Assembly (NCBI GenBank): GCA_963667465.2
Contig: CAXXDN010000002.1
Coordinates: 1,216,001 to 1,280,000, forward strand
From: Dehalococcoidia bacterium
GTDB lineage: Bacteria > Chloroflexota > Dehalococcoidia > UBA2979
Length of the DNA: 64,000 bases
Reading direction: 5' to 3'
Each line of letters begins with the position of its first letter. The stretch's first letter is position 1. Both the position numbers and the translations under genes were made by a program. The notes below the pieces were generated by a model. The model had not been told where the DNA came from and searched no databases. It worked only from the letters and a program-made list of their open reading frames with translations. Positions 55,914 to 57,871 of this stretch are shown here, in pieces.

Positions 55914-56129
55914 CGGGCAGACCCCTCGAGGGCTCCGAGGCGCCTCGAAGCCTGTTGCGCACGAGGGACTCGGACGAGCCTGCGCTGCGCGCGGCTCGCA
56001 CCCACCCACCCGCCCCGGATTGTGTTCTCTGTGGGGGCTGCGCCCCCACACCCCCCGCTCCGGCATCGCCTCACAGTTCCACCTCCGGCCCCCTCTCCTG
56101 GGGGAGAGACACCCCAGGGTGCTAAGGCG

Positions 56130-57353
56130 TCAAGCGGCGAGCTGTTCGCGGTCGTGGCGGTGCGCCCAGGCGGTGGCCTCGTCGTAGGGGCGACGTGCCT
56201 TCAGGCAGCCGTGGAGGTAGCCGACGAGGCGGTTGCCGAGAGCGCGCAGCGCCTGGTGGTGGAGGTCGCCCGCGGCGCGGCGGCGGTGGTAGAAGTCATG
56301 GCAGCCGGGGCTCGCCTGCAGCGAGCAGAGCGCCCAGCGGTCCACGGCGTCGGCGAGCCGGCGGTTGCGCACGAAGCGGGCGCGCACGCTGCGCTTGCGG
56401 CCCGATGCTACGGTGAGCGGCGAGGTGCCGGCGTAGTTCCTGCGGGACTTCGCCGACTCGTAGCGTTCGGGGTCGTCCCCGAACTCGCCGAGCACCCGGG
56501 CGCCGAGCACGACACCGAGACCGGGCAGGGAACGGTAGATTGCGGCGTCCGGGTGCTGCTCAAAATGGCTCGTGAGCGCGGCCTCGAGCTCCGTAAGCTG
56601 ACGGTTGATCTCGCTGATCTGCGCGACCGCCGCGCGGGTGCTCGCGGCGAACGCCCGGCTCACGGCAGGCGGCGCCTCGAGTTGCGGGGAGCGCAGCGCG
56701 TCGCGCACCGCGGCGGCGCGCCGCTCGAGGTTGCGCTGACGTCCGCCGCGGCGCAGCGCCGAGCGGATCTTCGACGTGCTCAGGCGCGCCGCCTCGCGCG
56801 GCTCGCTCGCCCGCGCCAGCACGCCCAGGGCGTCGCCGTGCGCGAGGCTGGGGAAGGCCTGCAGGGCAGCCGGGAAATACTCCCTGAGGGCGTTGCGCAG
56901 CCGGTTGGTCTGGCGCACGCGGTCCCAGATCAGCTGCTGGTGGGCGCGGGCGAGGATGCGCACCGCGGCAGCCTCGTCGCTGTCGCCGGCCAGCGGACGG
57001 TGGTTGTGGCGGTCGGTGCGCACGAGGTCGGCGAGCAGCTTCGCGTCGGCGGCGTCGGACTTGGCGCCGCCCAGGTGGTGACGCTCACGGTAGCGCGCCG
57101 CCGAGCGGGGGTTGATCGCGTAGACGCGGTAGCCGGCCGCGAGCAGGGCCGTGACCCAGGGTCCGCGGTCGGTCTCGATGCCGACCACGACCGCGCCCGG
57201 GTCTGAGGCGTGCTCGGCAACCAGTTCGTGCAGCACGGCGACGCCCGCGACGCCCTCGGGCAGCCGCCTGGCGGCGAGCCGTTCGCCGGCCTCGTTCATG
57301 AGCTGGACATCGTGGTGGTCTTCGGACCAGTCGTCACCGACGTAGAGGGTCAT
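56130..57353 (-). CDS. IS110 DEDD recombinase/transposase
   Basis: YVGDDW, GIET, KSDAADA (DEDD); LPGLG..LGA..LGE, ASG serine motif. Confidence 0.96.
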   Translation of the reverse strand: MTLYVGDDWSEDHHDVQLMNEAGERLAARRLPEGVAGVAVLHELVAEHASDPGAVVVGIETDRGPWVTALLAAGYRVYAINPRSAARYRERHHLGGAKSDAADAKLLADLVRTDRHNHRPLAGDSDEAAAVRILARAHQQLIWDRVRQTNRLRNALREYFPAALQAFPSLAHGDALGVLARASEPREAARLSTSKIRSALRRGGRQRNLERRAAAVRDALRSPQLEAPPAVSRAFAASTRAAVAQISEINRQLTELEAALTSHFEQHPDAAIYRSLPGLGVVLGARVLGEFGDDPERYESAKSRRNYAGTSPLTVASGRKRSVRARFVRNRRLADAVDRWALCSLQASPGCHDFYHRRRAAGDLHHQALRALGNRLVGYLHGCLKARRPYDEATAWAHRHDREQLAA

Positions 57354-57359
57354 CGTGCC

Positions 57360-57590
57360 TCGCTTTCCTGCGCTTCGTGCTGCTGTTTGCGACCTGCCGG
57401 GCTGGTCCTGCGACGGCCTAATGGACCAGTGCTCTCGGGCACGACACCCCAGGAGTGCTGTGGACCACCCGGACGCACCAGCCGGGGCACGGTCTCTCCC
57501 TGGAGATCGCAGTGTCTCGGGGAGGGGCAGTGCTCACCGGCCGGCCGGTCCAAGACCAGTCTCCCAGATCGCTCCAGGGTCCGGTCGAAC
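57360..57590 (-). ncRNA. IS110 bridge RNA
   Basis: Contains segments matching both the target and the donor junction (see findings). Confidence 0.8.
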
Positions 57591-57871
57591 CCCATTAGGG
57601 AGGGGGTGAGGGGGCTCGCCGGACCCTCGAGGTTGCGCGGGGGTCACGAACGCACTCGGGCTGCCGCGCCGCCCTTGCGCCATCGAGTTCGAGGGGTTCC
57701 GCAAGAGACGCACATCCGCCTTCCGGACAGCCCGTTGCACTCCCCGTGGGAGCAGGGCCCCACAGAAACAACCGAGGGCAGGTGGGTGGGCTGGAGCCGC
57801 GCGCAGCGCGTGCTCGTCCCGGATGGGGGCGTGGGGGGCGCAGCCCCCACAAGACAGTGTGGGCAGCCTCG

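Follow-up and report, generated by a model that had tools for sequence, protein, structure and literature searches.

It is very likely that positions 57598-56107 on the minus strand of the window (the whole stretch of DNA that was analysed, 64,000 nt) are a complete IS110-group insertion sequence whose 245-nt left end encodes an IS621-type bridge RNA acting in RNA-guided insertion. The earlier note on this DNA had read a bridge RNA with its guide segments in the order LTG-RTG-LDG-RDG, and this reading is now supported by a two-loop structure that is conserved among homologues, by covariation between the guides and the flanking DNA, and by a base in the handshake position. Comparison of sequences fixes the ends of the element, its CT core, the two-loop structure of the RNA and the strand that each guide would read, and the anatomy is as expected of an IS110-group element. 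The features are as follows.

56107-57598, minus strand: entire IS110-group element with both CT cores, based on ten copies with identical ends and differing flanks
57599-57605, minus strand: left target half cccctcc of this copy's site, within a REP-like repeat
57397-57587, minus strand: structured part of the bridge RNA, its predicted 5' end taken from the putative junction promoter and its 3' end set at the last conserved helix
57477-57545, minus strand: target-binding loop module, with an outer stem (57545-57530 with 57490-57477) and an inner hairpin (57518-57515 with 57506-57503); helices 2 and 3
[quoted passage not shown]
57494-57500, minus strand: RTG (GGGAGAG), reverse complement of CT plus ctccc; the AC that comes next (57493-57492) complements the last two donor bases, GT, a handshake-type position
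57397-57472, minus strand: donor-binding loop module, with an outer stem (57472-57462 with 57408-57397), a closing stem (57458-57455 with 57414-57410) and an inner hairpin (57442-57439 with 57432-57429); helices 4-6
[quoted passage not shown]
57417-57424, minus strand: RDG (CCAUUAG, 57424-57418), reverse complement of CT plus aatgg, then G57417, complementary to the final base of the left target
56130-57353, minus strand: recombinase ORF, 407 aa (DEDD RuvC-like domain and Tnp domain), based on Pfam, NCBIfam and Foldseek
56128-56133, minus strand: TTGACG, putative -35-like hexamer overlapping the stop codon
56102-56106, minus strand: ctccc, right half of the target and 5' arm of the REP-like hairpin ctctccccc-agg-agaggggg

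On the minus strand, two CT cores enclose 1,488 bp of the element. Its left junction reads ...cccctcc-CT-aatgg, with the CT at 57598-57597, and its right junction reads ...cctggggtgt-CT-ctccc, with the CT at 56108-56107; the empty-site and circle-junction strings that the earlier note had written out follow from these two junction sequences. Between the cores lie a long non-coding left end of 245 nt, an ORF of 407 aa, and a short right end of 21 nt that is followed by CT. The host assembly (two contigs, 2.97 Mb, 70.6% G+C) contains ten full copies of the element, whose only difference is one substitution in one copy, as well as an eleventh copy interrupted by a contig end. CT stands on both sides of each of the ten full copies, and because these provide ten independent flanks, the boundaries of the element are fixed. 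Judged from their sequences, the copies show that the element has multiplied recently in this genome, all ten of them at CT within one repeat family. The element had been described as intact, which agrees with the open ORF, the invariant motifs of catalytic type and the ten near-identical copies.

In contigs from three of four runs, 56106 and 57598 are separated by a single other letter, so that 56107-57597 (1,491 letters) is skipped. The matching sides of these contigs are just 23-25 nt long, and the joined string with its one other letter does not occur in the host assembly. It is possible that this form is an empty-site allele with a changed core base, the second core base not being T. The circle junction was not found in the contigs of the four runs. 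In one run (X2), contig depth is about five-fold higher over 56439-56580, where there are two G>A differences (56460 and 56490), and this likely reflects conserved sequence common to other IS110 relatives in the same samples. The element is also flanked on both sides, in inverted orientation, by a second repeat of about 100 nt with gtgggggc-gcagcccccac palindromes (at about 57745-57856 and 55966-56071), which has dozens of further occurrences in the genome at 77-90% identity.

The protein carries the two domains of an IS110 recombinase. Pfam family PF01548 (DEDD_Tnp_IS110) covers residues 5-161 (E 6.9e-38), giving an N-terminal DEDD RuvC-like domain, and PF02371 (Transposase_20) covers residues 273-356 (E 7.1e-11), giving a C-terminal Tnp domain, while the NCBIfam model NF033542, “IS110 family RNA-guided transposase”, matches with 185.8 bits, above its cut-off of 140. 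When an AlphaFold model of the recombinase (mean pLDDT 76) was searched with Foldseek, the top ten matches were all chains of IS621 (8wt6, 8wt9) or ISCro4 (9t56), with E about 1e-10, TM 0.63-0.66 normalised to the target, and 17-18% identity in the structure alignment. The best structural match is ISCro4 (PDB 9t56; E 6.5e-11, TM 0.65 normalised to the target, 17-18% identity), an element compared here by structure alone. In sequence searches of the PDB, no recombinase was matched either by phmmer or by a 17-sequence profile. The claim that this lineage is distant from the characterised examples is therefore well founded, given 17-18% identity to IS621 and ISCro4 and no sequence-level match in the PDB.

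Seven residues (D7, D8, E60, D100, D103, S317 and G318) are invariant among 17 homologues of 70-92% identity. In IS621 the residues used are D11, E60, D102, D105 and S241-G242 (PMC11208158). From the order and spacing of the motifs, not from a residue-level alignment, we infer that D7/D8, E60, D100 and D103 are the equivalents of D11, E60, D102 and D105, and that S317-G318 is the equivalent of S241-G242. A separate observation concerns the opposite strand of this gene, where the Rfam family Ms_AS-4 (“Actinobacteria sRNA”, RF02464) matches 56448-56529 (+) with 65.1 bits, above its gathering score of 50. The hit lies antisense to the best-conserved stretch of the transposase gene, and it probably reflects conservation of the IS110 coding sequence and not a separate sRNA gene.

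The four guide segments stand on the minus strand where they had first been reported: cccctccc at 57527-57520, gggagag at 57500-57494, cctggggtgtc at 57453-57443 and ccattag at 57424-57418. The match of cccctccc to the left target stood up in part; it is a perfect 8 nt at the site of this copy, but only there, and position -3 varies across the ten occupied sites. In this element the contiguous guide matches total 33 nt (8+7+11+7), LTG and LDG match just the first core base, and LTG ends in CC, where 34 of the 48 guide pairs of relatives have an LTG ending in CT. Outside the IS copies, on both strands of the genome, the 11-mer CCTGGGGTGTC occurs 0 times, CCATTAG 13 times, CCCCTCCC 113 times and GGGAGAG 491 times, and a sample of 200,000 random 230-nt windows from the host genome included none with all four words in order. 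Taken alone, the target-side words CCCCTCCC and GGGAGAG would be weak evidence in a genome this rich in C and G; the donor-side words would not be weak.

Guides that read the target should change when the target changes, and the earlier note had proposed aligning homologous elements to look for such covariation. The recombinase has thousands of relatives, and a scan of one genome per species gave 80 loci. The nearest relatives (75-92% identity) are in Dehalococcoidia-labelled MAGs, and the others (65-73%) are mostly Actinomycetota, including Mycobacterium, Rhodococcus and Nocardia. Homologous left ends align from a common CTAATGGG onward, and the DNA that precedes it diverges. Both ends were found in 72 of 81 elements and aligned by HMM to a profile of 25 left ends. 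After exclusion of four elements for a failed RTG anchor pattern (L028, L029, L040 and L084) and of seven for flanks shorter than 7 nt, the usable set comprised 61 insertions with 48 distinct guide pairs, and the invariant core was left out of the matching.

[quoted passage not shown] LDG tracks the right end. LTG matches the left flank at 4.63 of 7 positions, against 2.33 +/- 0.17 when flanks are permuted among elements, and the complement of RTG matches the right flank at 4.73 of 7, against 2.79 +/- 0.13; on either side, 0 of 10,000 permutations reached the observed match. The match is concentrated next to the core, at 96%, 88% and 83% for positions -1, -2 and -3 of the left target and falling further out, and at 96% for positions +1 to +4 of the right target, 52% at +5 and background beyond. 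Register slips in some relatives (for example L079 and L087, each with 0 of 7) were retained, and they count against the signal.

Two groups of close relatives (L018-L021 versus L022-L027, L032 and L075) have the same RTG and different LTGs. One of them carries the LTG TGGCTCCCT and is sited at tccggc(c/t)cc-CT-ctcccc, read as the second arm of the same REP hairpin; the remaining group carries the LTG CCT(C/T)GCCC and is sited at cacccccgcc-CT-ctccc. This difference between the groups looks like natural retargeting of one guide. Elsewhere in the family, L095 sits in a tandem array of the 7-mer GGCACCT, and its LTG and RTG each match the repeat unit. Among the Actinomycetota loci L036-L094, most targets read CT-AG from the core on, which makes a CTAG site and often a short palindrome such as cCTAGg or gCTAGc.

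Within the host genome, all ten copies are located at CT in a REP-like repeat of the form ...ccccctcaccccNcc-CT-ctccc-loop-gggagaggggccgg, and the right flank is ctccc in nine copies and aaccc in one. The CT-aaccc flank is seen in two insertions (the host copy at C2 1583212 (+) and locus L018) though RTG expects CT-ctccc, so that the left half matches and the right half is mismatched. At the site of the copy described here, the landing-pad repeat ...ccccctcacccccgcc-CT-ctccc-gcga-ggggagagggggccgga spans 57599-57625 and 56084-56106, and some of the landing-pad repeats form tandem series with a spacing of about 80 bp (for example C1 120643, 120723 and 120803).

The element-free pattern CC-N-CC-CT-CTCCC is found at 53 further host sites. 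Position -3 of these empty sites is G in 50, C in three, and A or T in none, and at the ten occupied sites it is g in five, a in two, c in two and t in one. Because LTG has U at this position and G is present in 5/10 occupied and 50/53 empty sites, there is a U.C mismatch at most of the element's own targets. A base other than G stands at -3 in 5/10 occupied sites versus 3/53 empty ones (Fisher p 0.0016), a comparison drawn from a small sample in which the empty sites are defined by an exact pattern not required of the occupied ones. As a weaker, additional reading, the U of LTG may favor insertion at those repeat variants, rare in the genome, that have a base other than G. A general rule that the target be a hairpin was not found among 64 rebuilt empty sites (mean z -0.32, with 8/64 below -2).

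On the donor side, LDG matches the right end over 9 nt family-wide (TGGG-G/A-TGTC) and over 11 nt in this element. At the G/A position, the 21 distinct pairs of guide and end are distributed as (G,G) 11, (A,A) 8, (G,A) 2 and (A,G) 0, and this one-way exception is what would be expected for an RNA guide that tolerates rG.dT. A second position of LDG covaries too, CA going with CA in L018 and CC with CC in this element. RDG (CCATTAG) and the left end (CTAATGG) are invariant in the family, with RDG matching 7 nt in this element. Because this invariance leaves no covariation test, the assignment of RDG is based on where it lies, on analogy and on how rare the word is.

The two sides of the reaction meet at the handshake position. 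In IS621, once strands have been exchanged, the bases that directly follow RTG and RDG pair with the final base before the core in the other DNA (PMC11208158). Among 64 distinct cases in the present family, the base after the AG of RDG is complementary to the final left-target base in 62 (G-C 52, C-G 9 and U-A 1), the other two being G.T. Covariation of a donor-loop base with target DNA, as seen here, is specific to the bridge mechanism. The base after the AG of RTG is A in every element read, and it faces an invariant donor T, the right ends reading ...GT-CT or ...AT-CT; this is consistent with the handshake rule and uninformative.

The structure of the RNA was tested with 42 pairs in six helices over 25 distinct homologous left ends. 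Its architecture consists of a 5' stem, a long stem that closes a hairpin-split internal loop, and a second stem system that closes another hairpin-split internal loop. Pairing is seen in 93.2% of the cells of the 25 left ends and drops to 33-47% if partners are shifted by 1-3 columns, and changes on both sides (compensatory) are seen in 19 of the 42 pairs. None of 500 shuffles matched the observed pairing, the covariation score or the number of compensated pairs. Helices 2 and 3 of the target loop have 98.6% and 98.0% of their cells paired, with 6 and 3 pairs changed on both sides, and pair 161/205 of the donor module switches from A-U to G-C in 9 of the 25 sequences. In other words, the guide pairs face each other across two internal loops, as the earlier note had suggested they might: in the 25 homologues, LTG and RTG flank the first loop, and LDG and RDG the second.

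A single-sequence fold of the left end is not exceptional (z -0.51), and in its structure of minimum energy LTG is paired with RTG and LDG with itself. Pairing of LTG with RTG is possible in this element because the target itself is a hairpin. This fold was rejected for the family, where pairing is seen in 72% of cells overall and in 58% of those of the LTG-RTG helix, and where the observed value was attained by 125 of 500 shuffles. The concern that the guides might be buried in stems is thus answered by a burying fold that does no better across the family than it does on shuffled data. Two pairings called by RNAalifold were also set aside. One joins the CTAATGG of the left end to RDG, which is trivial because RDG is complementary to the left end by design, and the stretch would lie upstream of the start set by the putative junction promoter. 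The other is a self-fold of LDG with zero compensatory changes, where an alternative closing stem has them. Among the 4,227 families of Rfam, there is no match in 57354-57598 at E <= 1.

Durrant et al. (PMC11208160) describe circles in which a promoter is rebuilt across the core, and by analogy a promoter may be formed across the circle junction of this element. Joining of the ends would put TTGACG 18 nt from TCTAAT (t56109, then CT, then aat at 57596-57594). Of 61 distinct junctions of a right end with a left end, 57 have TTGACN over the stop codon, its TGA being the stop (36 of them TTGACA), all 61 have TCTAAT across the core, and 55 have a spacer of 17-18 nt. To place TTGACN over the stop requires T as the synonymous third base of the last Ala codon. 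A scan for sigma-70-like sites called none in the integrated element. The -10-like box TCTAAT has C instead of A at its second position, and because this A is missing, the rule of the scan would not call it a promoter.

These observations bear on several other explanations of the left end. It could be argued that the internal copies of the end sequences are sub-terminal DNA repeats that serve as binding sites for the transposase protein, with no guide RNA involved. Indeed, LDG repeats the right end directly, RDG repeats the left end in inverted orientation, and both hardly vary within the family, as might also be true of sites bound by a protein. However, sites of this kind fail to predict that the two other segments covary with flanking host DNA, that the base adjacent to RDG complements the last base of the target in 62/64 cases, that compensatory changes occur at 19/42 helix positions, or that LDG and the right end differ in one direction only at the G/A position. 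We therefore consider this explanation very improbable.

We hold an equally low opinion of the proposal that the structured left end is a mere 5' leader controlling translation or stability of the transposase mRNA, and that the matches are by-products of a C/G-rich palindromic target. In its favor, LTG and RTG can pair in this element, the target being a hairpin, and C-rich or G-rich 7-8-mers are common in a genome of 70.6% G+C, as the 113 and 491 copies of the target-side words attest. Yet relatives with quite different, non-palindromic targets keep the same loops and matching guides, the LTG-RTG pairing is not conserved (58% of cells in that helix), and the 11-mer LDG is found nowhere else in the genome. 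Least credible of all, to a degree that we regard as negligible, is that the four matches arose by chance. The segments were picked after both ends had been seen, which would favor such coincidences, but 0/200,000 random windows contain all four in order and the same columns match the flanks in dozens of homologues.

The bridge RNA reading can also be set against the IS110 elements that have been studied. IS621 of E. coli (Durrant et al. 2024, PMC11208160; Hiraizumi et al. 2024, PMC11208158) likewise has a CT core, an RNA encoded in a long left end, and a first internal loop that binds the target and a second that binds the donor, binding roles that for the present RNA are predicted from its sequence. 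The handshake-type base after the 3' guide, the REP-like target and a candidate promoter-like motif over the predicted circle junction are further points of likeness, as are the DEDD domain, the Ser-Gly loop and the matching fold of the protein. The two recombinases are, however, only 17-18% identical, and the present one has 407 aa versus 326 aa, with extra helices between about residues 160 and 228 of the model, after the coiled coil. The left end is 245 nt here versus 191 nt in IS621 (PMC11208160), and the right end has only 21 nt before the CT, the stop codon being overlapped by the -35-like box. In this element LTG and LDG each extend over a single core base, and the nucleotides contiguously matched by guides number 33 versus 28 in IS621 (preprint 10.64898/2026.10.21.760802). 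In that preprint, 86 models yield 32,190 predicted bridge RNAs whose guides add up to 12-40 nt (IS621, 28), and the 33 nt of this element fall within its range. Predicted bridge RNAs are present in 85.7% of catalogued IS110s (PMC11208160).

ISPpu10 of P. putida is an IS110 element that needs a target DNA hairpin besides guide pairing (preprint 10.64898/2026.03.19.712850). The insertion point described here is also in the 5' arm of a genomic hairpin repeat, but a target hairpin is not general in this element's family, and the RNA keeps a 5' stem that is said to be absent from ISPpu10. The IS1111 group has the same family of recombinase, with a seekRNA or bridge RNA in a long right end and sub-terminal inverted repeats of 7-17 bp (PMC11208160). 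Because the structured RNA of the present element is in its left end and its right end is 23 nt including CT, it belongs to the IS110 group and not to the IS1111 group. Our literature searches found no paper on the RNA of this clade, which may be listed in the supplementary tables of PMC11208160 and 10.64898/2026.10.21.760802.

By homology with IS621, we hypothesize the following cycle. The element would be excised as a circle in which the right end is joined to the left end over one CT. The junction promoter, TTGACG-18 nt-TCTAAT, would then drive expression of both the RNA and the recombinase. The DEDD/Ser recombinase would bind the RNA, a tetramer holding the two RNA loops, of which one would pair with the circle junction and the other with the REP-like genomic repeat. 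Serine-linked strand exchange at CT would insert the element.

Systems of this type have been known since 2024, and the NCBI model NF033542 already names such proteins RNA-guided transposases. We accordingly view the element as a real but ordinary example that opens no new question. Whether it represents an experimentally uncharacterised clade, one made up of Dehalococcoidia-labelled MAGs and many Actinomycetota, with a 407-aa recombinase bearing extra helices, a 21-nt right end and, in this element, 33 guide-matched nt, we judge to be an even bet. If this is true, the clade could serve as an orthogonal, naturally reprogrammed bridge system; in close relatives, LTG seems already to have been redirected to the other arm of the REP hairpin. 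The potential for reprogramming ascribed to the element is likewise something we infer, and the support for it comes only from natural retargeting within the family.

For the host, a bridge system explains the expansion of this insertion sequence to ten copies, and it explains why a REP-like repeat family is the landing pad in this genome. For the family, the 48 distinct guide pairs with matching flanks amount to a natural experiment that reproduces three rules of IS621 from sequence alone: the strand read by each guide, the coverage of the core by the guides, and the handshake base. That the same rules hold at 17-18% identity to IS621 supports the generality of the mechanism and provides one more candidate for an orthogonal recombinase.
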